From Octopus vulgaris (lineage: Eukaryota): a stretch of 64,000 nt of DNA. Shown here piece after piece: positions 3,883-64,000 of this stretch (position 1 is the first letter of the stretch; the number at the start of each line of letters is the position of its first letter). Below the pieces are notes generated by a model. That model saw nothing but the letters and a program-made list of their open reading frames with translations, was not told the origin of the DNA and made no database searches. Where the stretch lies: the NCBI GenBank assembly GCA_951406725.2, contig OX597837.1, positions 32,860,001 through 32,924,000 on the forward strand. The letters run 5' to 3'. Position numbers and translations under genes: made by a program.

Positions 3883-4098
3883 GGCGGCGAGCTGGCTGAA
3901 TCATTAGCAAGCCGGGCGAAATGCTTAGCAGTGTTTCGTCTGTCTTTACGTTCTGAGTTCAAATTCTGCCGAGGTCGACTTTACCTTTTCATCCTTTCGG
4001 GGTCGATAAATTAACTACCAGTTGCGTACTGGGATCGATCTAATCGACTGGCACCCCCCCCTAAAATTTCGGGCCTTGTGCCAAGAGTAGAAAAGAAT
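3883..4098 (+). mobile_element. SINE family C, variant-tail subfamily
   Basis: Head GGCGGCGAGCTGG, B-box-like GAGTTCAAATTC, body CCTTTTCATCCTTTCGGGGTCGATAAA; tail differs from the GAAATA-ending copies. Confidence 0.85.
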
Positions 4099-4116
4099 AT
4101 ATATTGTTTATCCGAT

Positions 4117-4536
4117 AGGCGCAGGAGTGGCTGTGTGGTAAGTAGCTTGCTAACCAACCACATTGTTCCGGGTTCAGTCCCACTGCGTGGCATCTTGGGC
4201 AAGTGTCTTCTGCTATAGCCCCGGGCTGACCAATGCCTTGTGAGTGGATTTGGTAGACGGAAACTGAAAGAAGCCTGTCGTATATATGTATATATATATA
4301 TGTGTATGTGTGTGTATTTGTGTGTCTGTGTTTGTCCCCCCCTAGCATTGCTTGACAACCGATGCTGGTGTGTTTATGTCCCCGTTACTTAGCGGTTCGG
4401 CAAAAAGAGACCGATAAAATAAGTACTGGGCTTACAAAAGAATAAGTCCTGGGGTCGATTTGCCCGATTAAAGGCGGTGCTCCAGCATGGCCGCAGTCAA
4501 ATGACTGAAACAAGTAAAAGAGTAAAAGAGTAAGAG
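4117..4536 (+). mobile_element. SINE-B full length
   Basis: TSD TATCCGAT at 4109-4116 and 4537-4544. Confidence 0.92.
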
Positions 4537-5559: not shown

Positions 5560-6112
5560 AAGGCGCGTGGTTTAGTGCTTAGGGTAGTCGACTTACGATC
5601 GTAAGGTCATGAGTTCGATTCCATGCGGCACGTTGGGTCCTTGAACAAGACACTTTATTTCACATTGCTCGAGTCCACTCGCCTGGCAAAAATGAGTACT
5701 AAGGGTATTTCAAGGCGGCGAGCTGGCAGAATCGTTAGCACGCCGGGCGAAATGCTTTGCGGTATTTCGTCTGCCGTTACGTTGTGAGTTCAAATTCCGC
5801 CGAGGTCGACTTTGCCTTTCATCCTTTCGGGGTCGATAAATTAAGCACCAGTTACGAACTGGGGTCGATGTAATCGACTTAATACTTATGTCTGTCCTTG
5901 TTTGTTCCCTCTGTGTTTAGCCCCTTGTGGGTAATAAAGAAATAGGTATTTCAAAGGGCCACCCTTCTAACACTGAATCTCTTTGAGAAGTACGTTAAGG
6001 GTTACGCATGTCTGTGGAGTGCTCAGACACTTGCACGTTAATTTCACGAGCAGGCCGTTTCGTCGATCGATCGGATCAACTGGAACCCTCGTCGTCGTAA
6101 CCGACGGAATGC
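5560..6112 (+). mobile_element. Older A-related CORE-like SINE interrupted by SINE-C
   Basis: tRNA-like head, CORE-like TCCTTGAACAAGACACTTTATTTCAC, and family-A 3' half resuming after 5945. Confidence 0.8.
5714..5944 (+). mobile_element. SINE-C monomer
   Basis: TSD GGTATTTCAA at 5704-5713 and 5945-5954. Confidence 0.92.
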
Positions 6113-7091
6113 TAGCCATACCCAGAATAAGTACGGCGTCATTTCCAGCAGACCTTTTAAGGTTTTGATTGCGGGAGTTTTCCTCTTTCGCAGATGGACG
6201 CTCAGTAGCACCTGTTATGTAATCATCACAACAAACATGAACAATCAACGTTGCCCATTGTCTCCCTTGATACAAGGACATTCAGTAAGTTTCCCGCCAC
6301 AACAAATACCTTGTACAACAACGGGCAGTCTAATAAAGTATCTCGTATCGTTAACACGTTTTTTCAGTCTCTCTCATTTTCTTAATCTTTCATACTAAGT
6401 ACTCACTACTTCCTTTAATACTCAATACATTATATATATATATATAACAACAACAGCACCCACGATTTTACACACACACACACACACAATTTCCTATGGA
6501 ATCCGCACAGTTTCTGCCCTCCAAATGTCCAGATTTCGCCCCAAAGGCATTAGTGTGTAACGACAGTGAACATCTTCTCTGCACTTTTTGGGTGCAGTTG
6601 GTGCAATCACTTTCCGTTGCTTTAATATCCAGATTCTACCAGTCAGAAACAACAAGACGCAGACGTAAAAAATATATATCTACTTTATTCTCTTATGACA
6701 GTAACAAATAAGTGGTGTATCTGGTATCCCTTTGGTATGTATGTGTCAGAGCTGAACTTTATCGCTGTAGAATTTACAGTGTTCAAATGCAAACGACACT
6801 GGTCAAGATGGCGTCCGAATAGGAGAGAAAATGATGTGGTCGGCAACAAATGTCAGGGGGAAACGAAGATAATACGCGTCTTCTTCTATGAAAGGCTGAC
6901 TGCTGCTATCAAATCCGGACAGAGAGAGAATATTACACGTCTGATGCCTTCGGTCGCCGTGTCTCAAGTCACTGCCTACTGGACGCTGGTCATCAACGTC
7001 CTACGCTCCCCTTGCCTCACGGCTAAACTGCCACGTAGGCAAATGGTCCCTCTTCCGGTGGTGAAAGCACCAACCCCGCACGCGCGAAACA

Positions 7092-7202
7092 GAAATGGAC
7101 GGTGCGCGAGCGCGGACCGTTATATAGGATCACTACAAGTGAATCCAGGACAACGAATGACTCTAATTGAACGCGCTTGCCCAACGTATCGCCCCGCATT
7201 GG
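7092..7202 (-). promoter_or_regulatory. Candidate Pol II core promoter (CCAAT, TATA, Inr), TSS about 7096
   Basis: Minus strand: CCAAT at 7202-7198, TATATAA starting at 7126 (-30), Inr-type CCATTTC with the A at 7096. Lies in locally CpG-rich unique sequence; YY1-like CAAGATGGCG at 6804-6813. Confidence 0.55.
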
Positions 7203-7528
7203 CTCTGAACACTTAACTGCATGAGTTCAAAGCAAACATCTTGATTACCCATCCACGCTTGTTTATTAAATACAAAAGCAGACGCCTCCACCTTTACAAG
7301 AAGAAGAAGAAAAAAAACCAGGCCATGTTCATTATACACTCGACCTATAAAACACAGGTTTAAACAACAAAACTATGTCTTTTCTACTGTTGGGGGGGGA
7401 TATAAGAAAAAAATAATAACTAGGGCACATCTTTATTATATTCTTGGTCTATAAACGGTGTTTCTTAAGCCCCTTTTTTTCTATTTTCTACCCCTTTACC
7501 ACTTCACCGCCTGATTCCTTCTTTCTGC

Positions 7529-7529
<1 letters not shown>

Positions 7530-7576
<47 letters not shown>

Positions 7577-7824
7577 TGCTTTCTCTCTCTCTCTCTTGCT
7601 TTCTCTCTCTCTCTCTCGCGCTTTCTCTCTCTCTCTCTCGCTTTCTCTCTCTCTCTCTTTCTTTCTCTCTCTATCTTTCTCTCTCTCTCACGCTTTCTCT
7701 CTTTCTCTCTCTCTCGCTTTCTCTCTCTCTCTTGCTTTCCCTCTCTCTCTCTCTTGCTTTCCCTCTCTCTCTCTCTCTCTTGCTTTCCCTCTCTCTCTCT
7801 TTCTTGCTTTCTCTCTCTCTCTCG

Positions 7825-7882
<58 letters not shown>

Positions 7883-7893
7883 GCACACACACA
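7530..7893. repeat. CT-rich compound microsatellite
   Basis: (CTGT)n, then (CT)n with periodic TGCTTT/CGCTTT interruptions. Confidence 0.95.
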
Positions 7894-8245
7894 TGGCGAT
7901 CTTAGAGTTTACAATATCACTTTCGCTTTCGTGAGAGAGAGAAACTATTTTACTCATAAGGTTGTAAACGTTTGCAGTTTCATTGCTACAAAAAAAAAAA
8001 AAAAAAAAAATTTCTGTTCCATCTTGAGAGAAAAGAAGAAGAAAAAAAAACCAGAAAAAGAAAAAAAAAAACCCGTAAAACATAACAACTGAAAATGTAA
8101 TACAACGAAAATAAATGAAAAACAGAAACAGTTACAAAATACAACCACAAAATTTGAAATAATTCACATTGTTTTACTTAACGATGGAATTTCGTAAAAT
8201 AGACAACAACAAACAAACAAACAAAGTTGTTTGACTCTCTCTCTA

Positions 8246-8669
8246 TTTTACTCTTTTACTCTTTTACTTGTTTCAGTCATTTGACTGCGGCCATGCTGGA
8301 GCACCGCCTTTAGTCGAGCAACTCGACCCCGGGACTTATTCTTTGTAAGCCCAGTACTTATTCTATCGGTCTCTTTTTGCCGAACCGCTAAGTAACGGGG
8401 ACGTAAACACACCAGCATCGGTTGTCAAGCAATGCTAAGGGGACAAACACAGACACACAAACATACACACACATACACACATAAATATATATATACATAT
8501 ATATACGAAAGGCTTCTTTCAGTTTCCGTCTACCAAATCCATTCACGAGGCATTGGTCGGCCCGAGGCTATAGCAGAAGACACTTGCCCAAGATGCCACG
8601 CAGTGGGACTGAACCCGGAACCATGTGACTGGTTAGCAAGCTACTTACCACACAGCCACTCCTGCGCCT
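8246..8669 (-). mobile_element. SINE-B full length
   Basis: Near-identical to other B copies. Confidence 0.92.
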
Positions 8670-9094
8670 ATAACTGAAGCGAAAACGAAATATAAAGAAA
8701 AACATTCAGGCCATGAAAAAAGAGAAAAGAAAAGGCATTTCACGCAAAATGAAGTTGATGTTCAAAATTCAATGATCACACCTTTTCTATTGTATAAAAT
8801 CCCCGTAACTAGGCCGTTTAATGTTAATTATGAAACATTCTTATAAATCAACAGAGCGAATAATGATAGAAAAGTTTTTGGCATTTTTTCAAATTTCTCT
8901 CTGGAATCCCCCAAATTTTTTTTCTTAGAATTATGAAATTTTTTTTCCTCTCATTAAGAATGACTGACGTATCCTATCCTGCTTCTGTTGTTGCTGTTGT
9001 TTGTTTTTCCTCTTTTTTTTTTTATCTTTTTGCCTTTTGTTTTCTTCTAGCTCCATCCCAACTTCTTTTTTCATTGCTGCGGTATGGGCTTTGT

Positions 9095-9478
9095 GGGAGG
9101 CGCAATGGCCCAGTGGTTAGGGCAGCGGACTCGCGGTCGTAGGATCGCGGTTTCGATTCCCAGACCGGGCGTTGTGAGTGTTTATTGAGCGAAAACACCT
9201 AAAAGCTCCACGAGGCTCCGGCAGGGGATGGTGGTGATCCCTGCTGTACTCTTTCACCACAACTTTCTCTCACTCTTACTTCCTGTTTCTGTTGTACCTG
9301 TATTTCAAAGGGCCGGCCTTGTCACTCTCTGTGTCACGCTGAATATCCCCGAGAACTACGTTAAGGGTACACGTGTCTGTGGAGTGCTCAGCCACTTACA
9401 CGTTAATTTCACGAGCAGGATGTTCCGTTGATTCGGATCAACCGGAACCGTCGTCGTCGCAACCGACGGAGTGCTTCC
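9095..9478 (+). mobile_element. SINE-A full length
   Basis: TSD ATGGGCTTTGT at 9084-9094 and 9479-9489. Confidence 0.93.
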
Positions 9479-9724
9479 ATGGGCTTTGTTATATGAGAGT
9501 CGATTATATTCATAATGGTTTCAAATTTATGCATGAGACCAATAATTTCGGGAGAGGCGGTGGTGGTGGTGGTGGTGGGGATAAGCCGATTACATCGAAC
9601 CCAATATTCAACTGGTACTGATTTTATCGAACCCAATTTGATGAAAAGCAAAGTCGACCTCGGTGGACAAAATACCACTAAGCATTTTGTCCGGCATGCT
9701 AACGGTTCTTCCAGCTCGCCTATC

Positions 9725-10235
9725 AGTCGACAGCTGCATGAAACATCTATCGGCCGCAAACCCGGGTATCGCCGCCGTTCGCAACGCAGAAGAGAGAAAA
9801 ATAGATAAATACCTATTTCTTTACTACCCACAAGGGGCTAAACACAGAGAGGACAAACAAGGACAGACAAAGAGATTAAGTCGATTACATCGACACCAGT
9901 GCGTAACTGGTACTTATTTAATCGACCCCGTAAGGATGAAAGGCAAAGTCAACCTCGGCGGAATTTGAATTCAGAACGTAAAGACAGACCAAATACGTCT
10001 ACGCATTTCGCCCGGTGTGCTAACGTTTCTGCCAGCTCGAAATACCGCTATCAGTTTGTGCCGGTCGCTGACGAGACCCCGAGTGTTCTGACCCGTTACT
10101 GCTGATTTCCTCTGCAAAATCGGGATTATTGCGGCGCTTCTGAGAAATGAGCCACTCAAAGAAGGGTCGCTGCTGCAGTGAGTGTCGCTGGATATTCTCC
10201 GCGGCAACACCTTTGCAATTATGTCCTCGAGACGC
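9725..10235 (+). mobile_element. Decayed non-LTR retrotransposon ORF C-terminus (CRE-like, restriction-like-endonuclease region), split by SINE-C
   Basis: Translates SAANPGIAAVRNAEERKIDKY [SINE] RYQFVPVADET, then after a frameshift TADFLCKIG...LLQ*VSLDILRGNTFAI. This resembles the recalled CRE-clade pattern AE..K..KY...F.P.A.ET.G...L.QR.S..I.RGNA. Confidence 0.7.
9814..10039 (-). mobile_element. SINE-C monomer
   Basis: Flanked by AAATACC (GGTATTT on the element strand) at 9807-9813 and 10040-10046. Confidence 0.9.
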
Positions 10236-10458
10236 GGCTAAACGTGCCATTTGTTCTGGGGTGTGCAACCCGTTACTCTCCCTCTTCCTCATTTTCTTCG
10301 GTTTAAACCCCAACCCTTTTTTATAAATATTCTCCTTATTTTCTTTGGTGGGGTAGTCATGGATTTTTTGCAATCCTTCGACACTGATACATGACATCAT
10401 TCACCTGAACAACCTTCCCTCATGGCATAGATAAAGAGAGTACGCCGAAAAAGAGGGC

Positions 10459-10472
10459 AGATGACGTCATCT
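10459..10472. promoter_or_regulatory. Palindromic CRE/ATF site AGATGACGTCATCT
   Basis: Perfect TGACGTCA core inside a 14-bp palindrome; ATGACATCAT variant at 10391. Function not shown. Confidence 0.35.
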
Positions 10473-10957
10473 CTTCATGCCAACACTCTGTAGACCAATA
10501 TCGAAGGAATGCCGGGGTTTTTTTCTCTCTCGATAATTTAATCTTTTATACTTTTAATGCTTTTCTTTCTTTTCTTCCTTAAAAATTTGTTGCTAATAAA
10601 AACAAGGTCTCTTAATTGCAAAAATGATAAATAAATAAAAATAAATCTATATATTTACACGGTATTCCCGTTGCGCCTGGTTGCATCAAAAATGTACCTC
10701 CTCATGGTGACTATTTTTAGTTATTTGAACTGAGTGTTGCGATTTAGCGAGATAAAACATTCGTTATGTATACGGTATCCCCGCCACCACTTTTTCCTTA
10801 TCATCATATCTACAGCTGAGCACCCAGGAGAGAAGTTGGAAAATACCAATTGTTAGTGGAACTCAATGTCTAGGAAAGCACACATTGTCAGTAAATCTTA
10901 TATTCTCGCACATAGAGGGCGCGCGCGTGTTTGTATTCGTAGGTCTATCAATCTACC

Positions 10958-10959
<2 letters not shown>

Positions 10960-11032
<73 letters not shown>

Positions 11033-11221
11033 GTCTGTCTATCTTTCTATCTTTCAATCTGTCTGTCAGTCTGTCTATCTATCTATCTTTCAATCTGTCA
11101 GTCTGTCTGTCTATCTATCTTTCTATCTTTCAATCTGTCAGTCTGTCTGTCTATCTATCTTTCTATTTTTCAATTTCTCTGTCTGTCAGTCTGTCTATCT
11201 ATCTGTATATCTATCTGTCTG

Positions 11222-11300
<79 letters not shown>

Positions 11301-11410
11301 GATAGACAGACAGACAGATAGCTAGATAGACAGACAGACAGACAAATAAATATCTATCTATCTATTTATTTGTCTGTCTGTCTGCCTATCAGTCTGTCTA
11401 TTTATATATC
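10960..11410. repeat. Compound microsatellite (CT)n/(TA)n/(TCTA)n/(GACA)n
   Basis: Directly visible. Confidence 0.95.
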
Positions 11411-11839
11411 TATCTATCTCTATAAATGTGTATGTATGGCGTATGTAAGTATATCTCTTATGATAAAAGGCAGATTTTCTATGCCTGTTCCCATGTTCCT
11501 TTTTAATACAATTCTACAATATAGAATTTCTTCAATTGGAATTTACCTACGATTTTTACAAATCGAGAAAATCTCAATATAGAAAACACTTTGTAGCGCT
11601 CAAATGATTTGAACTTTCTCTCCAATATCTTTACCGAGGATCAAGTCAACAGGGTGAAGATTGGCTTTAAGGGAAATCCAAGTGAACAGATATGGAGACA
11701 CTGATTCAAATAAACATAAAAACCTCGAGTTTTTATGTACAAAAAATATATACATGTAAAAAGCGGAGGCAGACTTAAAACTTTCAGATGATTCACAATC
11801 AAGTGTGTGTGTGTGTGTGTGTATACATACATACATACA

Positions 11840-11870
<31 letters not shown>

Positions 11871-24791: not shown

Positions 24792-25198
24792 TGGCAGACA
24801 CGTTAGCACGCCAGGCAAAATGCGTAGCCGTATTTCGTCTGTCGTTACGTTCCAAGTTCAAATTCCGCCGCGGTCGACTTTACCTTTCATCCTTTCGGGG
24901 TCGATAAATTAAGTACCAGTTACACACTGGGGTTCGATGTAATCGACTTATTCCCTTTGTCTGTCCTTGTTTGTCCCTTCTGTGTTTGGCCCCTTGTGGG
25001 TAGTAAAGAAATAGGTATTTCGTCTGCAGCTACGTTCTGGGTTCAAATTCCGCCGAGGTCGACTTTGCCTTTCATCCTTTCGGGGTCGATAAATTAAGTA
25101 CCAGTTACACACTGGGGGCCGATGTAATCGACTTATTCCCTTTGTCTGTCCTTGTTTGTCCCTTCTATGTTTGGTCCCTTGTGGGTAGTAAAGAAATA
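24792..25198 (+). mobile_element. SINE-C dimer, 5' truncated
   Basis: Junction GAAATAGGTATTTCG at about 25008-25022. Confidence 0.88.
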
Positions 25199-25716
25199 CA
25201 TATATATATATATATATGATGCAGAGACTGTAGTGTGTGTAAGTTAAAGGAGATTTGGCTACTATTTCTTGCAGGCCGAGTGAACACGTTAGGGAAGGAG
25301 GTTCGGCCACCACGGGTAGAGCTTAAACAATCAGCCAGCAAGCAAGCCAGCCAGCCAGTCAGCCAGCCAGCCAACCGGCAATGGATAAAACGAGGTGAAG
25401 AAACAAAACGAGACGGTTCGCTGCTTCTTTCGTCAGTTTTAATGTATTAAAACAGATGTCTGAAAAAATGGGTACAGCTGAAGGGGAGGAGGAGGAGGAG
25501 AAGGAGATAAAGGGTTTAGTCTTCTCACAGGGCAATTTGGATATCTCTTTCTGACTCTGTCAACATCTCTCTTTCTCCCTCTCACTCTTACTCTCTCTCC
25601 CCTCTCTCTCTTACTCTCTCTCCCCTCCGTCTCTCACTCTTACTCCCCCTCTCTCTCTCTCTCTTTGTGTGTGTATCTACCTCTCTGCTTCGTTCTCCGT
25701 CCGTCCGTCTTTTTTT

Positions 25717-25803
<87 letters not shown>

Positions 25804-25941
25804 CTCTACATATATATATATACATGTATGTATGTATTTGTCTCTGTGTGTGTAAGAATGAGGGCTATACATGGAGATTGACTTAGAGAAATATATAAAT
25901 GCATATAAAATCTATTCCTACCTTTGTTTTATTCTCTCTCT

Positions 25942-25986
<45 letters not shown>

Positions 25987-26113
25987 AGTGCAAACAAGAA
26001 AGACAGAGAAAGGCAGAAACAAGGAAAATGCCACTTATATTTGAACACTATACAAATATCCCTTTAAAAAAACTTTTCTTTTAATTTTTCTGAATTTAAT
26101 TATTTAATCGTTA

Positions 26114-26151
26114 CAGTTGAAAAGGTCTCAAAATGACCGAAACCGGTACTG
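26114..26151 (+). ncRNA. Minimal type I hammerhead-ribozyme-like motif, degenerate core
   Basis: CAG-TTGAAAA-GGTC(loop)GACC-GAAACCGGTA-CTG: stem I, stem II and palindromic stem III present; core deviates from CUGANGA at 2 positions. Confidence 0.45.
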
Positions 26152-26613
26152 AAATGTTCTTTATAAAATTATTTTAGCATTTTCTATCTTGACTTGTTTT
26201 TTCATATATATATATATATAATAATTAATATGAGCAGCGGTTTACAATGTTTCACAAAAAGGAAAATCACAAATGTCACTAAATGCGACTTGGATGTTAG
26301 ACAACACCTACGTTGCTAGAAATAAGAGCTAAAACGCTCTAATGCCGTATTGTGTAATCTATCTTTAATGCTGTAATCTATCTTTATGTCTCTTTCTCTG
26401 TCTCCCTCTCGTTTAATGTCCCTTTGTCTCCCATTTTCCATCGATGCAATCCCTTTTTTACCTCTTTGATGTCTGTGTTATAAGCCTTTGACAATAATGC
26501 TGACCTTTTTTTGTCCCTTGTCTAACAGCTGCCACCATGGCAACTGTACGTACCCCCATCTACAATCCTAATTCTTAAAACGTGACTGCCATTTTTTTTT
26601 TACAATGGATTCA

Positions 26614-26673
<60 letters not shown>

Positions 26674-27038
26674 GTGATTGAAATGTTTTTGCATGTGTGA
26701 ACTTTTTAATCTATCACAAAATTCACACTTGGATTACCTCAAAGGGTCGATCTCTCTCACTTTCTCTCCCATTCTCTACCTCTCTTATTTCCATTGTGTC
26801 TCCCATCCCCACGTCTCTCTCCTAACCACGATCGCACTCTTCTGTTGCCGAGTACGCAATATTTAGAGACGGCTAGTAGGGCTTGTTTGGCCATAACGCT
26901 CCTACTGGGAAGCGAACAGAAACCCTTGTAAGGCGTACCTTTGAAACCTATAGAAGTGACCCAGACCCGTGCAGAGATGGGAGAGGAGAGGACAACTAGA
27001 CCAGTTGATAGTAAATGAAACCTTCCACCGCACACAGG

Positions 27039-27953
27039 CGAAAGGAGAACCGGATCTTTTCAATTCTGAAGCCAGTTTTTTCAAATTTTTCCTACTGAAC
27101 CAAACAATTTGAAACTTCGTATACTGGTAGAATGTGTCAAAAGTAAACTTAATTGTAAACCAGAATGAAAACGGAATTGTAACTTCTAAGTTTAACGTTG
27201 TTTAATAATTAGAATTTTAACCAATGATATTCTGTCATTCGGCTTTATTTTATTTACTCCGTCTCGACCACCAATTTGGTGACGTATTAAACATCTTAAA
27301 TGTAAACAAGCCGCATGTCTCCGTGAAATCTCCTTCTAATTATTTAACGTACTCATGTTTCCAGGATCCTATAGTCAGCCACCTTCTAATAACAATATTT
27401 AAAACTAGTTAATAAGCCACATGTATTAAATTGAAAATGTTTCCATTCTGTTAGTACTTGCTTTCGTTTGCTATTAAGAAGTGGCATCTCAGTGACGAGG
27501 CTTCTAACAAGATTTCGTTTCTAAGCTAATGCGTTTCATTTCACTTATTGTATTTATTTGTGCAAAAGGCAAGAAATTTAATATTAAAAAAGCAAAGAGC
27601 TGGCAGAAACGTTAGCACGCCGGGCGAAATACGCAGCCGTATTTCGTCTGCCGTTACGTTCTGTGTTTGTTTACAGTTTTCCGAACGTTAGTACGTCACA
27701 AAAGCGCTTTCTACGTCACACTAATAGAATGCAGTCAAGTTTTACACATGAAAACAAACAATCTGATTGGTTAAAATTCGCAGTTTTAATCTACGATTAA
27801 AGTCATAAAATAGATTTTTCTCAAATAAACTAGTTCCAACCTGTGTCTTGTTTTGCTAGACTCTATCAGCATACGAAGTTTCAGAATATTTAGTTAAGTA
27901 GAAAGATCTGTGGTCCTGGCTTCAGAATTGAAAAGATCCGGAGAACCCTTTCG
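27039..27953. mobile_element. Non-autonomous TIR DNA element, superfamily unassigned
   Basis: About 37-bp TIRs CGAAAGG...CCGGATCTTTTCAATTCTGAAGCCAG at 27039-27075 and 27916-27953; subterminal inverted TGAAACTTCGTAT / ATACGAAGTTTCA; SINE-C head fragment inside at about 27597-27663; no clear TSD. Confidence 0.75.
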
Positions 27954-27986
27954 AAATTTATATATATATATACATATTTATATACA

Positions 27987-28029
<43 letters not shown>

Positions 28030-28030
<1 letters not shown>

Positions 28031-28436
28031 GGCGCAGGAGTGGCTGTGTGGTAAGTAGCTTGCTAACCAACCACATGGTTCCGGGTTCAGTCCCACTGCG
28101 TGGCATCTTGGGCAAGTGTCTTCTGCTATAGCCCCGGGCCGACCAATGCCTTGTGAGTGGATATGGTAGACGGAAACTGAAAGAAGCCTGTCGTATATAT
28201 GTATATATATATATATAAGTGTGTGTGTATATGTTTGTGTGTCTGTGTTTGTCCCCCTAGCATTGCTTGACAACCGATGCTGGTGTGTTTACGTCCCCGT
28301 TACTTAGCGGTTTGGCAAAAGAGACCGATAGAATAAGTACTGGGCTTACAAAGAATAAGTCCCGGAGTCGAGTTGCTCGACTAAAGGCGGTGCTCCAGCA
28401 TGGCCGCAGTCAAATGACTGAAACAAGTAAAAGAGT
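28030..28436 (+). mobile_element. SINE-B full length
   Basis: Sequence identity to other copies. Confidence 0.92.
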
Positions 28437-28729
28437 ATATGCAAGTGTGTGTGTTTTCGCTCTGAGGTAGATAGCTTGTAGAGGAGGTTCCCTATATTTT
28501 CAGTCGACCAATTGATTGCTAAAGCTGAACCATGAACGCACCTAAGTTAGCAAATCATTTTCCTACATTGTTTACAATCGTTTCATCATTATTCAATGTA
28601 AACAATCTTGCGTCATGTAAATATATCGACACCTATTGATTAATTTTCCATATGCTATGTAAGATTTCTTTTCATGGTACATGCTGGAAATGATTTCTCA
28701 CGATTTCTACAAAAAATTGTGTGTGTGTA

Positions 28730-28783
<54 letters not shown>

Positions 28784-30255
28784 TGTGTGTGTATGTGTGT
28801 GTGTGTGCGCGCGCGTGCACGTGAATTTATTTCATATTTGAAACGTCTGAAGATGTCGCTGACCATGTTGACCGTAAAATATATGTCTCTGACCATGGAC
28901 ATGTAAAAGACCACAACATGTAGATGTGGTTTCTGACCATGTAGATGGGAACACATAGATCACATGCAGATGTGTTTATTGACCTGGACAGGTGGTTCAT
29001 GTGAACCACCTACCTTGACCGGACCGCTCAGCCACCTGCGCTCTCTGGTGATGAAGGATCGAACTAAAAACGGGCGTATTTTACTATCTGACCCCTTTTA
29101 CACACACACACTTATACATATATAAAAGGGAGTTTCTATCTTGTTGCTTGAGCCGCAAGAAATAGTAACCAGGAGCCCCTAAATTCACACCTTACTGTCT
29201 TTTAAAATGGAAGGACACGTTGAATTATGTAACGGCGAATCATTGTGACTAGGAATAAAATAGGATGGTCATAGGTGGAACGTATTTAATCGTAAAGTGT
29301 GATCAGGACTTGCATTGTAGGGTCAGATGGACACACAGACATTCCTTCTTTTAGCGTTGAATCGATAAGAATTTCCAGGCATCGTTCTGCACTGTGTAGG
29401 TATGTGTGTGAGAGAGTATATAAATGTGTGTGTGAGAGTGTGTATGAACGTGTGTGTGTGTGAGAGAGAGAGAGGGGGGAGTGAGAAAGAAAAACGAGTG
29501 TGGGGTGGAGAGAGGGGGAGAGAGTGTATGTAAATGTGTGAGAGAGAGAGGGGGGAGAGAGTGTATGTAAATGTGTGAGAGAGAGAGAGGGGGGAGAGAG
29601 TGTATGTAAATGTGTGAGAGAGAGAGGGAGGAGAGAGAAAGATACAAAGAGTGTGTATGTGTATGAGAGAGAAAGTATATGTAGAGAGAGTATGTGAATG
29701 TAAATGTGAGAGAGAGAGGGGGAGAGAGAGGGGGGGAGAGAGTGCATGTATACAAATGTGTGAGAGAGGGAGAGATAGACAGAGAGGGATAGGTAGCGAG
29801 TATATGTAAATGTGTGTATGAATGTGAGAGTTTATGCAAATATGTGTGTGTGCGTATGCGCGAGAGTATGAAGACGTGCGTGTCTGAAAGGTGTGTGTGT
29901 GTATGTGTGTGTGTGTGTGCGCGCGGGGGGACGTATGTAAATGTGACTCCTCCCACCACTCCCCTCTACATGATGTCACCAGGTAGAGGGGAGAGGTAGG
30001 AGGAAGAGGAAGATGCCTCCCAGTTAAGAGATTTGTTATTGTTTCCTTAATACTCTGTTACAAAAACAACAACAACAACAACGACATCAACAGCAACAAC
30101 AATAACAATGGCTTGTCACTTGTCTCACCTGTCACTACATGTATAGACAAGCGGCAATTCTCTCGACTTTCTTTATTGGTCTCTTCTGTTGTTGAAGACT
30201 TCTTAAATCACAATACTCAAACACACGCGCACACACACACTCTCTCACACACACA

Positions 30256-30311
<56 letters not shown>

Positions 30312-30922
30312 CCTGGCATTCCTTCGGAGATGGTATCACGAAAGTGAAAATGAAAATGGTTCTGTTTTGTCTATTTTGTTCGGCAATTCCCGTCAAACTC
30401 TTTTTGTTTCTTTAATTTTTTTCCCCAAGGTTGAAGAGTGAAACAGACGGTCGCTCGCTCGTGTGAGCTCACACTCCAGTACACACACACACACACACAC
30501 ACACATACACACACATATATTTCCTCCTCGTTTTGGTCTAACAACCTTCCATGTTTGTTTCAGTTCGGTTTCCTTGTATGTCTCCACTCTCCTGGTTTTG
30601 TTCCCAACTTTGACCCTCCATAAATCCAAAATTTTATTTTCCTACTTATGGGAGCAACTGTCTTCGAAGACATATATTGTCGTTGAATGCTCGAAATGAG
30701 GAATAAGATAGTCAGCCGACAACTGATGAAGGGTCGTTCTTTGTGTTACTTGTCCTCTTTTCCATTTTTTTCTCTTGTGGTTTGCTTATTTAAATCGTTT
30801 GTTTTCGTACTTCATGTTGTTTACACAGTTGGTGATGTCCTGTAGCCATATATGCATATGTGTGTGTGTGTGTGAGTGTGTGTGTGTGTGTGTATGTATG
30901 TATATACATATACATAATTATA

Positions 30923-31155
30923 AGGCGCTGAGCTGGCAGAAACGTTAGCACGCCGGGCGAAATGCGTAGCCGTATTTCGTCTGCCGTTACGTTCTGAGTT
31001 CAAATTCCGCCGAGGTCGACTTTGCCTTTCATCCTTTCTGGGTCGATTAAATAAAGTACCAGTTACGCACTGGGGTCGATGTAATCGACTTAATCCCTTT
31101 GTCTGTCCTTGTTTGTCCCCTCTATGTTTAGCCCCTTGTGGGCAATAAAGAAATA
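30923..31155 (+). mobile_element. SINE-C monomer in a TA-rich microsatellite
   Basis: Ends AAAGAAATA merging into TATAC. Confidence 0.9.
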
Positions 31156-31664
31156 TATACATATACATAATACGTACGTACATACATACATATGTACGTA
31201 CGTGCGTGCGTGCATGCATGCATGCATACATACATACATACATACATACATACATACATACATACATACATACATACATACATACATACATACATACATA
31301 CATAAATAAACATATGTGTATGTATTACGACGCTTTACTTTGACAATTGCCTCGCCTCCGAAACTCACCGCCAATCCTTGACAGTAAGCAAACTGAAAGA
31401 ATTCTAAAAATCTCCACCAAGTTTAGACACGTCCGCAGCGAGGGAAGTTGTTATTGATTTACATATGTCAAAGGTCAGGGTAAGAGACTTAGACGTGAAT
31501 ATAAATCTGTTTGTTTTTTTTTATCTGTTATTTGTTTCATTCACTGGGTTTTAGTTGAACAAATTGTCCCCAATATTTGTTTTTCTCTTTAAGCCTGCTA
31601 CTTATTCTGTCGATATCTTACCAAACCGCTAAGCTATTGGGACTAAACAAAGACACTTGTGTGT

Positions 31665-31698
<34 letters not shown>

Positions 31699-31980
31699 CT
31701 GTGTGTGTGTGTGTGTGTCTGTGTGTGTGTGTTTGTGTCCAACCACTGCATGACAGCTGGTGTTGGTTTGTTTACGTCCCTGTAACTTAGTGGTTCGGCA
31801 AAAAAGTCCGACAGAATACGTATCAGTTTTCAGCAAAAAAGTACTGGAGTCGATTTGTTTTACTAACAACCCTTCAAGGCGGTGCACCAGCATGGCCGTA
31901 CTCCAATGACTGAAACGTGTAAAGGATAAATAGTAAAGATTCTTAGTTCAATAAATCTGATAATCTATCGATAATCCAAA

Positions 31981-32355
31981 TCTTTATATATAAAAGAGAA
32001 GTTGTGTGTCTGTCTCCTACGATTTAGATTCCTAACTACTCCCACATTTTGCGGTGCAGTTTAACCAAAAGCGGGTATCTTATAGTCGTGATTCATATCG
32101 AGCCCTTCTGGGTATTAGCGCGCGTCTACGATGAGTCTACGATTTTTTTCCATTTTAATGCATTTTTTCGCTATTATATAAGGGAAGTAACTCTCTAAAA
32201 ATGTCTATGATGAGTCAACGATTAAAAAAAAATTTACCATAATTTTTTTTCGATTTTTAATGCATTTTTTTGCTATTTTTTGGCTATAACTCTCTAAAAA
32301 TGCTTATATAGTTATTTCCCTTACAAACCCGAGCAACGCCGGGCGATACTGCTAG
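31981..32355 (+). mobile_element. Non-autonomous Helitron
   Basis: Sits between A (31980) and T (32356); 5' TC; 3' hairpin CCCGAGCAACGCCGGG followed by CTAG; no TSD. Confidence 0.85.
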
Positions 32356-32504
32356 TGCATTATAAAGAACCACTTGAACTGGTTCGGTGTTTCATTTAGA
32401 TTAAAATTGTTAATTGAAGACTTTGATATTGATACAATTGATAAGCTATTGATTTTAAGATATTGATCAGTGATAACAGAAAGATTCTTCATTATTTAAC
32501 AAGG

Positions 32505-33965
32505 GGAAGGCAGCGAGCTGGCAGAATCGTTAGTACGCCAGGCAAAATGATTGGTGACATTTCGTCTGTCTTTATGTTCTGCGTTCAAATTCCATCGAGA
32601 TCGACTTTGCCTTTCATCCTTTCGGGGTCGATGAAATAAGTACCAGTTATACACTGAGGTCGATATAATGGACAACCCCCTTCCCCCAAAATTCTCAAGG
32701 CTTTTGTGCCTAGAGGAGAAATATTTATTTAACAAAAGGTTAGCCTAGCGGGCAAAATGCTTTGCGGCGTTTCTTCTGGCTTTACGTTCTGAGTTCAAAA
32801 TCGCCTTTCCTCCTTTGGGAGTTGATAAAATAAGTACCAGTGAAATACTGGGGTCGATGTGTCTATAGTAGAAAGGATTATGTAGCAAAAGGCAAGGTAA
32901 CGAGCTGGTAGAAAGTGTTAGCGCGTCGATCAAAATGCTCAACAGTATTTGCGGCGAGCTGGTAGAAACGTTAGCGCGCCGGGCGAAATGCTTAGCGGTA
33001 TTTCGTCTGCCGATGCATTCTGAGTTCAAATTCCGCCGAGGTCGACTTTGCCTTTCATCCTTTCGGGGTCGATTAAATAAGTACCAGTTACGCACTGGGG
33101 TCGATATAATCGACTTAATACCTATGTCTGTCCTTATTTGTCCTCTCTGTGTTTAGCCCCTTGTGGGTAATAAAGAAATAGGTATTTCGTCTGCCGCTGC
33201 GTTCTGAGTTCAAATTTCGCCGAGGTCGACTTTGCCTTTCATCCTTTCGGGGTCGATTAAATAAGTACCAGTTACGCACTGGGGTCGATATAATCGACTT
33301 AATACCTATGTCTGTCCTTATTTGTCCTCTCTGTGTTTAGCCCCTTGTGGGTAATAAAGAAATAGGTATTTATTTTAGCTCTTTACTTTCTGACTTCAAA
33401 TTCTTCCGAAGTCCACTTCACCTCTCATCCTTTCAGTGTTGATAAAAATAAAGTACCTGTCAAGTACAGGAGGTCAATCGACTTATCCCCCACCCCCTCA
33501 AAATTGCAGGTCTGATGCCAAAATTAGAATGATTTAAAGGCGACGAGCCTACAGAATCGTCAAACGCTTCGAACAAAATGCTTAGAGATATTTCGTTCGC
33601 TGTTACGTTCTGAGTTCAAATTCCGCCGAGGTTGACTTTGCCTTTCATCTTTGCGGGCTCGATAGATTAAGTACCAGTTGTGTACTGGGATCGATCTAAT
33701 CAACTGGCCCCCTCCCCCAAATTTCAGGCCTTGTGCCTATAGTAGAAAGGATTATTATTATTATGGCGGCTAGCTGACAGAATTGTTATGCCGTCAGACA
33801 AAATGTTTAGTGTTGTTTGTTCTGGCTCTTTACGTTCTGAGTTCAAATTCTGCTGAGGTCACCTTTACTTTTCATCCTTTCAGGGTCAATAGAATAAGTA
33901 CCAGTTATACAATTGGGTTGATGTAATCTGCCTCCTCCCCTACCGCTTCGAAAGAATTATTAGGA
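32505..33965 (+). mobile_element. Cluster of at least 6 same-orientation SINE-C and C-related copies of different ages, including a young dimer at 32951-33364
   Basis: Repeated GAGCTGG...GTTCAAATTC...CCTTTCATCCTTT...GTACCAG modules; dimer junction at 33181. Confidence 0.85.
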
Positions 33966-35167: not shown

Positions 35168-36202
35168 GCAGTATTGGCAATGGTGGCTGCTCACTTAGAC
35201 AGACATAATTTCTATATTTCAGATCTAAAGTATATTGTGTGACAGGTGTCAGGTATAAGATAGACAAATTAAGCAGTCCGATGATGGTGTTGGTAGTGAT
35301 GGCGGCGGCACAGAATTATCTTTTTTTTACAAAGTTTTTTTTTTACTTTAGATTTACGCTCAATAACTACTGTGAGATGTCTTAAGCAGAGGCTTGAGTG
35401 GCACAGATCGAGATTAATTTAATGTTAGCTAATTTCTTTTTTTCTTCTTTTTTTATGAGACATTTGGCGTACCTAAGTTCTTGGGCATTTCCCCTGCTGT
35501 CCCCCGCTCGCGGTATGTCCATGTACGTGTGCAAATGTATGCATTCCCTCCCCTCTCTCTCCTCCATATATATTGAAAAACGTTGCTATCACCATCAGAC
35601 TGAACAATAATGATTAGAAGGTGTCAAAATTGTGATGATATTTGGTCGACAGCTGATGAGGGAATTAGCATGTCTGCGTCTGATATTTGCTTTCCTCCGT
35701 AAATTTCTTTATCACCTCTCTGTGTAACCTTTATATATATTTATCTATAAATAGCCACCCTGTGAGCTCCACATACCTCCACGCTACGCTACTGTGATAT
35801 TGGTTATCTCCGCTTGTTTGTTGGAGTTGTTCCCAATTGCCACCAGGTGATTTGTTTTTACTTTCTCTGGAAGCAAAGATAATTCCAATAAATCAAGAAT
35901 TTATTTTGTATGGTTTTCAATGTGTGTGTGTGTGTGTGTGTGTTGGTAGTTGTATAATGATGATGGTAGTGGTGATGGTGGTGGATGGCAGATAAGGCAG
36001 TGATCATGGCGAAGGAATTTTATGTTGATGTTGGGAGTGGACGGGATAATGCTGTGTGGCCGGCCATATTTGGTGTGTATGACGTATATACATATATGAA
36101 TCCGTTTATTGTAATCACAGATAATATCATCAAATAGTTATTGTTACCAAAATTAGGATGTCTCAAACTTTTTATTTGAAGTTAATTAAAAATTATCTGT
36201 TT

Positions 36203-36625
36203 AGGCGCAGGAGTGGCTGTGTGGTAAGTAGCTTGCTAACCAACCACATGGTTCCGGGTTCAGTCCCACTGCGTGGCATCTTGGGCAAGTGTCTTCTGCT
36301 ATAGCCACGGGCCGACCAATGCCTTGTGAGTGGATTTGGTAGACGGAAACTGAAAGAAGCCTGTCGTATATATGTATATATATATATATATGTATGTGTG
36401 TGTATATGTTTGTGTGTGTGTTTGTCCCCCTAGCATTGCTTGACAACCGATGCTGGTGTGTTTACGTCCCCGTCACTTAGCGGTTCGGCAAAAGAGACCG
36501 ATAGAATAAGTACTGGGCTTACAAAGAATAAGTCCCGGGGTCGATTTGCTCGACTAAAGGTGGTGCTCCAGCATGGCCGCAGTCGAATGACTGAAACAAG
36601 TAAAAGAGTAAAAGAGAGTAAAGAG
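36203..36625 (+). mobile_element. SINE-B full length
   Basis: Sequence identity to other copies. Confidence 0.92.
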
Positions 36626-44438: not shown

Positions 44439-44475
<37 letters not shown>

Positions 44476-44702
44476 AGGCGGCGAGCTGGTAGAAACGTTA
44501 GCACGCCGGGCGAAATACTTAGCCGTATTTCGTCTGTCGTTACGTTCCGAGTTCAAATTCCGCCGAGGTCGACTTTGCCTTTCATCCTTTCGGGGTCGAT
44601 AAATTAAGTACCAGTTACGCACTGGGGTCGATGTAGTCGACTTAATCCCTTTGTCTGTCCTTGTTTGTCCCCTCTGTGTTTAGCCCCTTGTGGGTAGTAA
44701 AG

Positions 44703-44707
<5 letters not shown>
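44476..44707 (+). mobile_element. SINE-C monomer within (TA)n
   Basis: Full head; 3' GAAATA merges into (TA)n. Confidence 0.92.
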
Positions 44708-45689: not shown

Positions 45690-45910
45690 ACTCTTTACTC
45701 TTTTACTCTTTTACTTGTTTCAGTCATTTGACTGCGGCCAAGCTGGAGCACCACCTTTAATCGAGCAACTCGACCTCGGGACTTATTCTTTGTAAGCCCA
45801 GTACTTATTCTGTCGGTCTCTTTTGCCGAACTGCTAAGTGACGGTGACATAAACACACCAGCATCGGTTGTCAAGCGATGTTGGGGGGACAAACACAGAC
45901 ATACAAACAT

Positions 45911-45941
<31 letters not shown>

Positions 45942-46107
45942 CATATATACGACGGGCTTCTTTCAGTTTCCGTCTACCAAATCCACTCACAAGGCTTTGG
46001 TCGGCCCAAGGCTATAGTAGAAAACACTTGCCCAAGATGCCACACAGTGGGACTGAACCCGGAACCATGTGGTTGGTAAGCAAGCTACTTACCACACAGC
46101 CACTCCT
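45690..46107 (-). mobile_element. SINE-B
   Basis: Sequence identity to other copies. Confidence 0.9.
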
Positions 46108-46535
46108 TGTATAAAGTAGTTTAAAAAGATGGAAGTGTGATGACCAGAATGCCTTTCATTATAGGTCTGCTGGATCAAACCTGACCAAGGATTAAAGAAC
46201 AAGCAACCACCCCTTCTAACCCTACCCTACGACCCCCAGCTGCTGACATGGAGGCTGGTCCCCTCATCTTTCTAATTGGTTCAATGGTTTTGTTAATTAT
46301 TATAGCCAGGATGTGTTGGTGGGTTTCATGCTGGTTATAACAACAGTTACATCCAGCCGGAAGTGTTTGTGACTGTTGTTGTTATTGTTGCTGTTGTTCT
46401 TTAGCCCCAGGTCAGTACTGATGGAGCTCACTATTCAAACGCCGCCCCATTTCCAATAAGCTCTGGGACTACATTATCCAATATAACCTTCCCTTTTATT
46501 GTTAGGCATTTTTAGGTGCAGTTTGAGGGAGACCT

Positions 46536-47876: not shown

Positions 47877-47922
<46 letters not shown>

Positions 47923-48085
47923 GAGGTGCTTCTTTCAGTTTCTGTCTACCAAATCCACTCACTAGGTTTTGGTTGGCCTGGGGCTATAGTAGAAGACACT
48001 TACCCAGAGTACCACATAGTAGGACTGAACCCGGAACCATGTGGTTGGGAAACAAGCTTCTTACCACACAGCCACTCCTGCGCCT
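47710..48085 (-). mobile_element. SINE-B, diverged
   Basis: Sequence similarity; partly duplicated at about 51010-51349. Confidence 0.85.
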
Positions 48086-48218
48086 ATACACATATATATA
48101 TATGTGTGGGTGGTGGTGTATATATGTATCTGTGCATGTCTCTTTTTATATGTACATATGTCTACATATATATGTCTGTATATAAATATATGTATATATA
48201 TATATGCCGATATGTATG

Positions 48219-63381: not shown

Positions 63382-64000
63382 CATCTTCCCATCATCATGG
63401 AGGCCTTCAAAGTGGCTTTTTCCAATCTCTTGGATGCTCCTTGGTAACTGCATAGGTGAGCTGGCAGAAACGCTAGCGCGCCGGGCGAAATGCTTAGCGG
63501 TATTTCATCTGCCGCTACGTTCTGAGTTCGAATTCCGCTGAGTTCGACTTTGTCTTTCATCCTTTCGGGGTTGATTAAATAAGTACCAGTTACACACTGG
63601 GGTCGATATAATCGACTTAATCCGTTTGTTCGTCCTTGTTTATCCTCTCTGTGTTTAGCCCCTTGTGGGTAGTAAAGATGTCGGTAACTGCATAGGTCCA
63701 CCAGTCGTCTGTGAACTTTGCAGCATGTTCAGACCAGCAGCACTCACTCGTGTATTCTTCAGTATTCTTCAATCGCATCATTCTCTCCACTCCATTCTCA
63801 AATTACCTAGTTTTGAACATGCTCCCATAATGATATTCCTAGCATGGCTATCTTCATGGTCCTTTGCTTCACAGCCAATCGATGTTCTGTCCTCTTCATA
63901 GCAGACCACATCTCACTTGTGTATAAGAGCACAGGCAGGACAGTGTTATTAAAGAGCCTCATACATATGGGTTTGTCTAGCTTTATTTTGAGTATTTTTT
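63382..64000 (-). mobile_element. Decayed RTE-clade LINE ORF C-terminus, runs off the window end
   Basis: Minus strand: LFNNTVLPVLLYTSEMWS...AMLGISLWEH...KFTDDWWTYAVT [SINE] KEHPRDWKKPL*RPP**WED. Matches recalled RTE motifs LYGSETW, WAGHVAR..D.RW and KRP.GRP..RW. Confidence 0.85.
63458..63682 (+). mobile_element. SINE-C monomer inserted in the RTE fragment
   Basis: 15-bp TSD GGTAACTGCATAGGT at 63443-63457 and 63683-63697. Confidence 0.92.

Follow-up and report, generated by a model that had tools for sequence, protein, structure and literature searches.

Does a SINE (short interspersed element) that carries its own target motif seek out its own family? The question is raised by a stretch of 64,000 nucleotides (nt) of the Octopus vulgaris genome (GenBank assembly GCA_951406725.2, contig OX597837.1, positions 32,860,001 to 32,924,000 of the forward strand; "the window" below means this whole stretch). 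In it, a first-pass annotation had described a SINE, here called C, as inserting at GGTAT(TT), a motif said to lie inside the element and just past its 3' end, and had proposed that the RNA ends in GGTATTT, primes reverse transcription by 3' microhomology and thereby steers insertions into its own family. Copies collected in the window and across the genome give a partly different answer: C targets by microhomology in a loose way that depends on the subfamily, its self-insertion is modest, and head-to-tail chains are abundant.

C is 231 nt long, starts with GGCGGCGAG, ends with AAAGAAATA and has GAAATA as its 3' terminus. An exact 34-nt pattern of its tail matches 51,582 times in the 2.8-Gb genome, and the total number of C tails is estimated at about 92,000; short, dispersed, present in high copy number and flanked by target-site duplications (TSDs) of variable length (6-24 nt, median 16), C is a SINE. 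The internal motif placed about 47 nt into the element is there, as GGTATTTCG, of the GGTATTT type, starting at position 48, and C also carries AGAAAC at position 15 and, in antisense, GGTACTT at about position 136. A sister family, D, has positions 1-166 in common with C and a different tail. The head of C is predicted to fold as one long hairpin, spanning positions 7-78 (z -3.4), its loop lying next to position 48, and not as a cloverleaf; A- and B-box-like motifs were seen by eye only, ARAGORN found no tRNA in C, and Rfam gave neither a tRNA nor a ribozyme. The core presumably resembles the Deu/Nin domain. Four consecutive T (T4) occur nowhere in the consensus, so an RNA polymerase III (Pol III) transcript of C would be expected to continue into downstream sequence. 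The family is present in four assembled contig sets, none of them on record as RNA. A retrozyme-like rolling-circle repeat was also considered for C and set aside, no self-cleaving ribozyme family being found in the repeat unit at the Rfam gathering threshold or at E values up to 5.

Targets were read from TSDs, by comparison of the two TSD copies of each insertion. To avoid circularity, the TSD register was fixed on bases from the seventh onwards and the first target bases were then taken from the upstream TSD copy only; loci L001-L010, whose query held GGTATTT, and every locus selected for a junction were excluded. A diagonal was obtained for 54 of 109 terminal ends; the complexity filter left 47 of them, removal of three tandem artefacts in L082 left 44, and an independent replicate gave 7 usable ends out of 35; weak TSDs (score 6-7) may include chance matches, which would dilute a motif and not create one. 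Targets starting with GGTAT make up 6/44 in the main set and 1/7 in the replicate (7/51 together, against a background of 0.0007), those starting with GGTA 12/44 (p = 2e-15 against three times the background) and 2/7 (background 0.003), and those starting with GGT 15/44 and 2/7 (17/51, background 0.012). The proposed insertion motif is therefore strongly enriched in upstream TSDs outside the window, yet it is not universal: it accounts for a minority of targets and is over-represented in the window.

The TSD begins at the base right after GAAATA in 21 of the 44 ends, and what it begins with depends on the tail. GGGTAA-tailed copies have GGT targets in 8 of 11 cases against 10 of 38 for the others (p = 0.01); AG or AA targets are found for 5 of 10 GGGC-tailed copies and for 1 of the 39 others (p = 7e-4), so that the preferred motif is GGTA for GGGT-tailed copies, AGAA for GGGC-tailed copies and (T/G/C)ATAT for many GGGTAG copies. 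A single RNA end in GGTATTT for the whole family does not agree with these preferences, and the motif just past the 3' end is not a fixed feature either, since GGT follows only 37 of 91 terminal C tails (13 of these 91 tails being of the GGGC type). Some copies, moreover, hold G, GGT, GGTATA or T at the junction where the target has other bases, and some copy ends carry a duplicated GAAATA, which is what an RNA running on beyond GAAATA would be expected to leave. The overlap between element end and TSD start thus exceeds chance and follows the end sequence of the element. Microhomology at the 3' end is supported by this tracking of subfamily and by the junction bases that the target lacks; what lacks support is the idea of one extension shared by all copies.

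That C enters its own family was borne out. A pattern for a head inserted in a head, over positions 46-76, has 82 exact matches (some being tandem head repeats at one locus), with 62 and 31 matches for two control windows; normalised by anchor frequency, nesting at position 48 is 4-8 times that at control positions, the absolute expectation shifting 3-fold with the calibration (from 2.8x to 8.9x), and some 600 head-in-head loci are estimated after correction for exact-match loss. Among the 26 such loci inspected, several are flanked by true TSDs with private variants in common (L141, L150, L152, L159), and others are head duplications. In the antisense direction, insertion at GGTACTT of the family core has 822 exact matches against about 6 expected at random, and in 26 of 30 loci the host continues on either side of the insertion. 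True TSD-flanked insertions in C and D occur at positions 48 and 136. In the window, young copies had been described as sitting in older relatives at two places. At 32945 this is clear, the D host (head 32896-32950, body 33365-33485) scoring 65 for the head and 136 for the body where the maxima of 300 shuffles are 39 and 73; at 20066 it is marginal by the same test (42 against 41 and 72 against 71), and the dimer there possibly lies inside a very decayed relative (about 20019-20072 plus 20485-20620).

This self-insertion would nevertheless be a by-product of bearing a preferred motif, with no recognition of the family. The antisense site makes up 3% of all GGTA sites, and by our arithmetic about 500 antisense insertions are expected when about a quarter of targets start with GGTA, so that, with 822 found, the family is hit about as often as its own motif content predicts. 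Position 48, whose enrichment over control windows is real, is not specially targeted: double-head nesting is seen in 4 of 119 elements of a tail-selected sample and in none of 25 unselected ones (antisense insertion in 2 of the 119 full-head elements), and the antisense site has more exact hits. C also stays below the share of copies at one target type, more than 20%, used for Tx1-clade elements (PMC4494074).

Three further arrangements of family copies were seen. At L010 (1026-1737), an old D-type copy holds three full elements with one 15-nt TSD sequence repeated between them, an array of the form TSD-(SINE-TSD)n whose units differ from each other. Head-in-body junctions from the control search (positions about 100-105) cluster after GACTTTGCCTT, which suggests a minor self-site near position 90 (AGGT). 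At L230 and L232, a C copy is followed by an antisense host core, the other half of the host being missing upstream, possibly through 3' read-through carry-over or deletion.

Far more frequent than nesting are chains in which a complete tail runs directly into the inside of another unit. There are 27,542 tail-to-position-48 junctions, about 30% of the estimated tails, and 2,436 tail-to-position-15 junctions, counts slightly inflated by duplicates such as L270-L272 (G000 C1:22.15-22.30 Mb), where three loci are identical down to their flanks through segmental duplication or assembly redundancy. Of the 119 elements sampled by their tails, 60 are multimers, a share inflated by that selection, and in the unselected replicate 7 of 25 are; chains reach 6 units inside one TSD pair, and 22 of the 60 multimers end in a D body. 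The subfamily rule seen at DNA targets recurs here: by hand count of the first 100 listed junctions in each case, the preceding unit is GGGC-tailed in 86 at position 15 and in 5 at the antisense GGTACTT site, so one rule holds for DNA targets and for chain junctions alike. Rare variants are common to both members in 36 of 73 pairs of neighbouring units, where random pairing gives 5%, and to the two units of 11 of 30 dimers; in long arrays the inner units are within 0-0.5% of each other.

Two side observations concern the chains. Family D also has tail-to-position-48 and tail-to-position-15 junctions (L086, minus strand; L052; L121), so the chain habit is not confined to C. Tandem repeats of the head only, with a period of 55-69 nt and often joined by AA, occur at L146, L154, L145 and L169 and at G000 C13:69036075, C20:48572553 and C29:18518839, possibly from jumps off the RNA's 5' end back to position ~62.

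Insertion into position 48 had been offered as the source of such GGTATTT junctions, and extended to the chains it would read as follows: all RNAs end in GGTATTT and home to position 48, and the 5' junction forms by homology with the host head. Nesting at position 48 is above both control windows, the last units of chains are older, and one or two chimeras (L047, L103) share a variant at 55-57. Homing would, however, leave the head of the host, and the heads are not host-derived. In 19 single-head chimeras of C and D the head is C-type (T at position 19 in 3/19 against 35/59 in D, p = 0.001), and position 63 is T in 1/19 first units against 9/19 last units; first units of chains are C-type and not host-type at positions 19, 36, 61 and 63. 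No host head was found at 20 position-15 junctions, where first heads do not have the variants of a host in common with it: of 31 downstream variants, 4 recur in the first heads. Single-head chains also outnumber nesting, and the other subfamilies use other motifs. Homing is thus largely refuted as the main route and we regard it as very improbable, though possible for a minority of loci; the non-host heads indicate that chains likely formed at the RNA or complementary DNA (cDNA) stage.

The register, the motifs, their link to subfamily, self-insertion and the architecture of the chains are established. To account for them we propose, with moderate confidence, that a few RNA bases after GAAATA pair with any priming DNA 3' end, be it that of a nicked chromosome or that of nascent C cDNA. 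An L1/Tx1-type LINE (long interspersed element) protein would bind the C tail and nick DNA with loose specificity, and pairing of the RNA extension would decide which nicks become productive. When the cDNA reaches position 48, at the predicted hairpin loop, or position 15, its 3' end would be complementary to the same extension; the enzyme could then jump to the tail of another RNA molecule, or back to that of the one in use, and copy another body (template jumping). Long arrays with near-identical inner units probably expanded later as DNA. Human L1 ORF2p makes template-jump concatemers in vitro and extends primers of 5-10 nt (PMC10830420). A bolder version, which we put forward only tentatively, adds a heritable memory of target sites: an unterminated source copy would transcribe the bases after its tail, which are either its last target or the next unit of the chain, and these would select the next target, pairing also occurring on nascent cDNA. 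The GGTA, AGAA and TATA preferences of the subfamilies would then be self-reinforcing with an unchanged enzyme, and the third of tails found in junctions would have been joined at insertion.

Several observations weigh against this pairing mechanism. The extension past GAAATA is deduced from genomic copies, and a stem-loop in the C tail is no more stable than in shuffles. At the target, many sequences, such as CATATT, GAATGT and AATAAT, differ in their first bases from all three extensions and are still in register, as fits an endonuclease preference; T and A stand at offsets 2-3 in 34/47 and 33/47 targets, whatever the tail type; the replicate is small and weaker (GGT in 2/7, and in 0/2 of its GGGTAA copies); and the GGGTAA enrichment at the antisense site, p = 6e-4 against the larger baseline, falls to p = 0.16 against purely random pieces. 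In the chains, rare variants are more numerous in last than in first units (5.3 against 3.6, p = 0.003), as they are in D cores (0.048 against 0.022), and the variants shared by adjacent units could stem from later gene conversion or DNA duplication.

The in-register targets without a matching extension and the bases at offsets 2-3 fit a Tx1-type endonuclease preferring NNTA(T/C), with little RNA pairing and with chains made after insertion by microhomology-mediated DNA duplication and unequal exchange. In the Tx1 clade it is often the endonuclease that makes an element sequence-specific (PMC4494074), the near-identity of inner array units suits later duplication, and SINE arrays of bivalves and reptiles have been put down to unequal recombination (PMC11481361, PMC10702118). 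Local duplication, however, cannot bring a C unit together with a D body, or with C of an unrelated haplotype, inside a single TSD, and D bodies end more than a third of the multimers; the 86% versus 5% subfamily split would need two helpers or two epochs, and the bases foreign to the target at junctions would stay without a source in it. An endonuclease preference probably contributes to target choice, but as the whole explanation we find it unlikely.

The older last units are what read-through into an older host predicts. Under this explanation, rare nesting creates masters from which Pol III, meeting no terminator, reads the inner head through the host body with no template jump; RNAs copied whole become chains, and those copied from the inner tail become monomers primed by the GGTATTT of the next unit. 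The absence of T4 from the consensus and the existence of truly nested loci agree with it, and it predicts a single C-type head and an outer TSD equally well. A clonal signature is missing, however: no first/last haplotype combination recurs among the 31, and terminal units from different loci have few rare variants in common (0.075 against 0.045 per pair), a weak test since monomer haplotypes are themselves diverse (50/60), which tempers its support for template jumping. Variants shared within dimers are unexpected from the nesting of unrelated copies, and primary double-head insertions were found at 0 of 20 position-15 loci. We consider read-through masters possible but rather doubtful, ahead of the endonuclease explanation.

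The pairing mechanism calls for a helper, and a candidate lineage is represented in the window by a LINE 3' end whose last ~42 nt are about 80% like the C tail. A long copy (L221, 4128-7514) encodes an endonuclease domain, a partial reverse transcriptase (29 bits, just below the 29.6 cut-off, in a partial open reading frame) and zf-RVT, and the nearest atlas neighbours of the LINE are L1-like ORF2 proteins. The LINE is young (L191-L220, top matches 96-100% alike) and ends in AATAAAGAAA-CATATC; most of 27 copies run into (TATC)n, so that it surpasses the 20% share at one target type, and its flanks being microsatellite, TSDs cannot be reconstructed. Domain content and (TATC)n targeting, the latter suggesting Tx1 affinity, suggest an L1/Tx1-type helper lineage. 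As the actual helper of C, the LINE is unproven: it sits in (TATC)n, tail identity is its one tie to C, and its tail type does not precede position 48 beyond three matches, all at one locus with the 185-nt spacing of a SINE array.

The window holds nine C elements, five monomers and four head-body-body dimers (Table 1). All six TSD pairs previously cited are where they had been placed, and GGT follows the 3' end in six of the nine, TA-rich sequence in the other three. Two copies ending in GAAATA had been noted in TA-rich DNA; this setting is right, although the copy at 30924 has a true TSD. The third TA-rich-flanked copy, the dimer at 24792-25198, had gone uncited, as had dimers as such. Three rare variants are common to both bodies of the dimer at 15611..16059. 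AA or TAA often stands between the upstream TSD and the head (for example at 30919-30923 and 44475-44476), and the gap ends in AA in 14 of 33 full-head copies, which may reflect bases added without a template or the point where the RNA truly starts. A further SINE-like family, also very abundant, contains a (TA)/(TG) microsatellite and has the stretch GTTTGTCCCC in common with the C tail.

Table 1. Copies of C and D and related features in the 64-kb window.
Feature	Position (strand)	Details
C monomer 5714-5944	5704..5954 (+)	TSD GGTATTTCAA at 5704-5713 and 5945-5954
C monomer 10039-9814	9807..10046 (-)	begins at element position 6; TSD GGTATTT 10040-10046/9807-9813
C dimer	15611..16059 (+)	head 15628-15674, body 1 15675-15858, body 2 15859-16042; TSD GGTATATAAGTGTACAA 15611-15627/16043-16059
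Hairpin-forming 5' region	15628..15710 (+)	predicted long hairpin, GGTATTTCG pairing with CGAAATGC; z -3.4; 1/200 shuffles as stable
C dimer 20074-20484	20066..20494 (+)	TSD GGTATTTACG (20066/20485)
C dimer	24792-25198 (+)	junction at 25014; end GAAATA/CATATA; no clear TSD
C monomer 30924-31155	30903..31171 (+)	GGGC tail type; 16-nt TSD TATACATATACATAAT; TA-rich surroundings
C dimer 32951-33364	32896..33485 (+)	nested in old D copy at position 48-54; TSD GTATTT (32945/33366)
C monomer	44477..44707 (+)	within (TA)n; TSD not resolvable
C monomer 63455-63682	63443..63697 (+)	TSD GGTAACTGCATAGGT (63443/63683)
D copies	3883..4049 (+); 9720-9582 (-); 32509-32673; 32739-32860; 33539-33705; 33765-33928; 49044-48879 (-)	
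LINE 3' end	50780-50864 (+)	~80% like the tail of C over the final ~42 nt; possible helper lineage
(TA)/(TG) SINE-like family	1318-1822; 4086-4415; 8259-8774; 19097-19500; 23626-23955; 28017-28437	
(TA)/(TG) SINE-like family, further copies	36194-36616; 45698-46123; 47891-48190; 54606-55114; 59142-59656	

Whether site choice by non-LTR elements depends on RNA-DNA pairing or on the endonuclease has been argued mostly from overlaps of one or two bases. The opposite behaviour of two near-identical C subfamilies at thousands of loci makes the pairing question testable by swapping a few RNA bases. C also gives a high-frequency route by which a SINE becomes a tandem array or part of a chimera of two families, with head and body from C followed by body and tail from D, which bears on the exchange of SINE modules and on the birth of SINE-derived satellites. 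For annotation, GAAATA should be taken as the end of C, and TSDs beginning with GGTAT are not safely all target-derived.

A literature search found no account of the targets or chains of C; most subscription papers and the 1994 octopus SINE paper lay outside its reach, and a prior description is possible. In that year Ohshima and Okada reportedly described the octopus SINEs OK, OR1 and OR2. End-to-end template jumping is known for R2, and recombinant SINEs are known from Entamoeba. C is possibly the same family as the octopus elements or as the tRNA-Deu SINEs, the latter being listed in PMC13282606.

Among the nearest relatives in behaviour are the RTE-related SINEs (Nishiyama and Ohshima 2018, PMC6007223), in which, as in C, near-identical subfamilies with differing 3' ends differ in the start of the TSD. 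That study proposes pairing between RNA and target, cites 3' overlap for L1, CR1, L2 and RTE, and holds that gain of a new 3' repeat could shift targets. Animal microhomology there is 1-2 bases long with a microsatellite tail, whereas that of C reaches 7 bases, is non-repetitive and is identical to motifs inside the element, and C has an L1/Tx1-type LINE as its candidate helper. In crocodilians, SINEU and Tx1-Mar (Kojima 2015, PMC4494074) offer a Tx1-mobilised SINE entering a different repeat, where, as at L010, a TSD lies between tandem copies. The same paper covers Tx1, Kibi and Koshi, and microsatellite-targeting Tx1 families resemble the (TATC)n LINE found here. SINEU-3, however, lies to 90% in one foreign transposon, while C has a loose preference and a few percent of copies in its own family, and unlike the SINEU tandem copies most C chains have no TSD between units.

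Arrays of both types, TSD-(SINE)n-TSD and TSD-(SINE-TSD)n, are reported from the blood clam (PMC11481361) and occur in C; clam and squamate arrays (PMC11481361, PMC10702118) likewise consist of a full head followed by 5'-truncated units in one TSD pair, and SINE-derived satellites are known in squamates (PMC10702118). Clam multimers make up about 3% of SINEs and unequal recombination is invoked for them (PMC11481361), whereas nearly a third of C tails are junctions; in C, unlike the clam arrays, each unit has a complete tail, junctions lie at extension-matching motifs and two families are mixed. Template jumping by L1 ORF2p (PMC10830420) continues the cDNA on a second RNA and needs only short primers, as would that of C; the jumps described there start at the end of the first template, whereas those of C would occur at fixed internal positions and in a large share of copies. 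Microhomology-primed SINE integration is thus already known, and C is a variant of it with subfamily-split targets and frequent chains.

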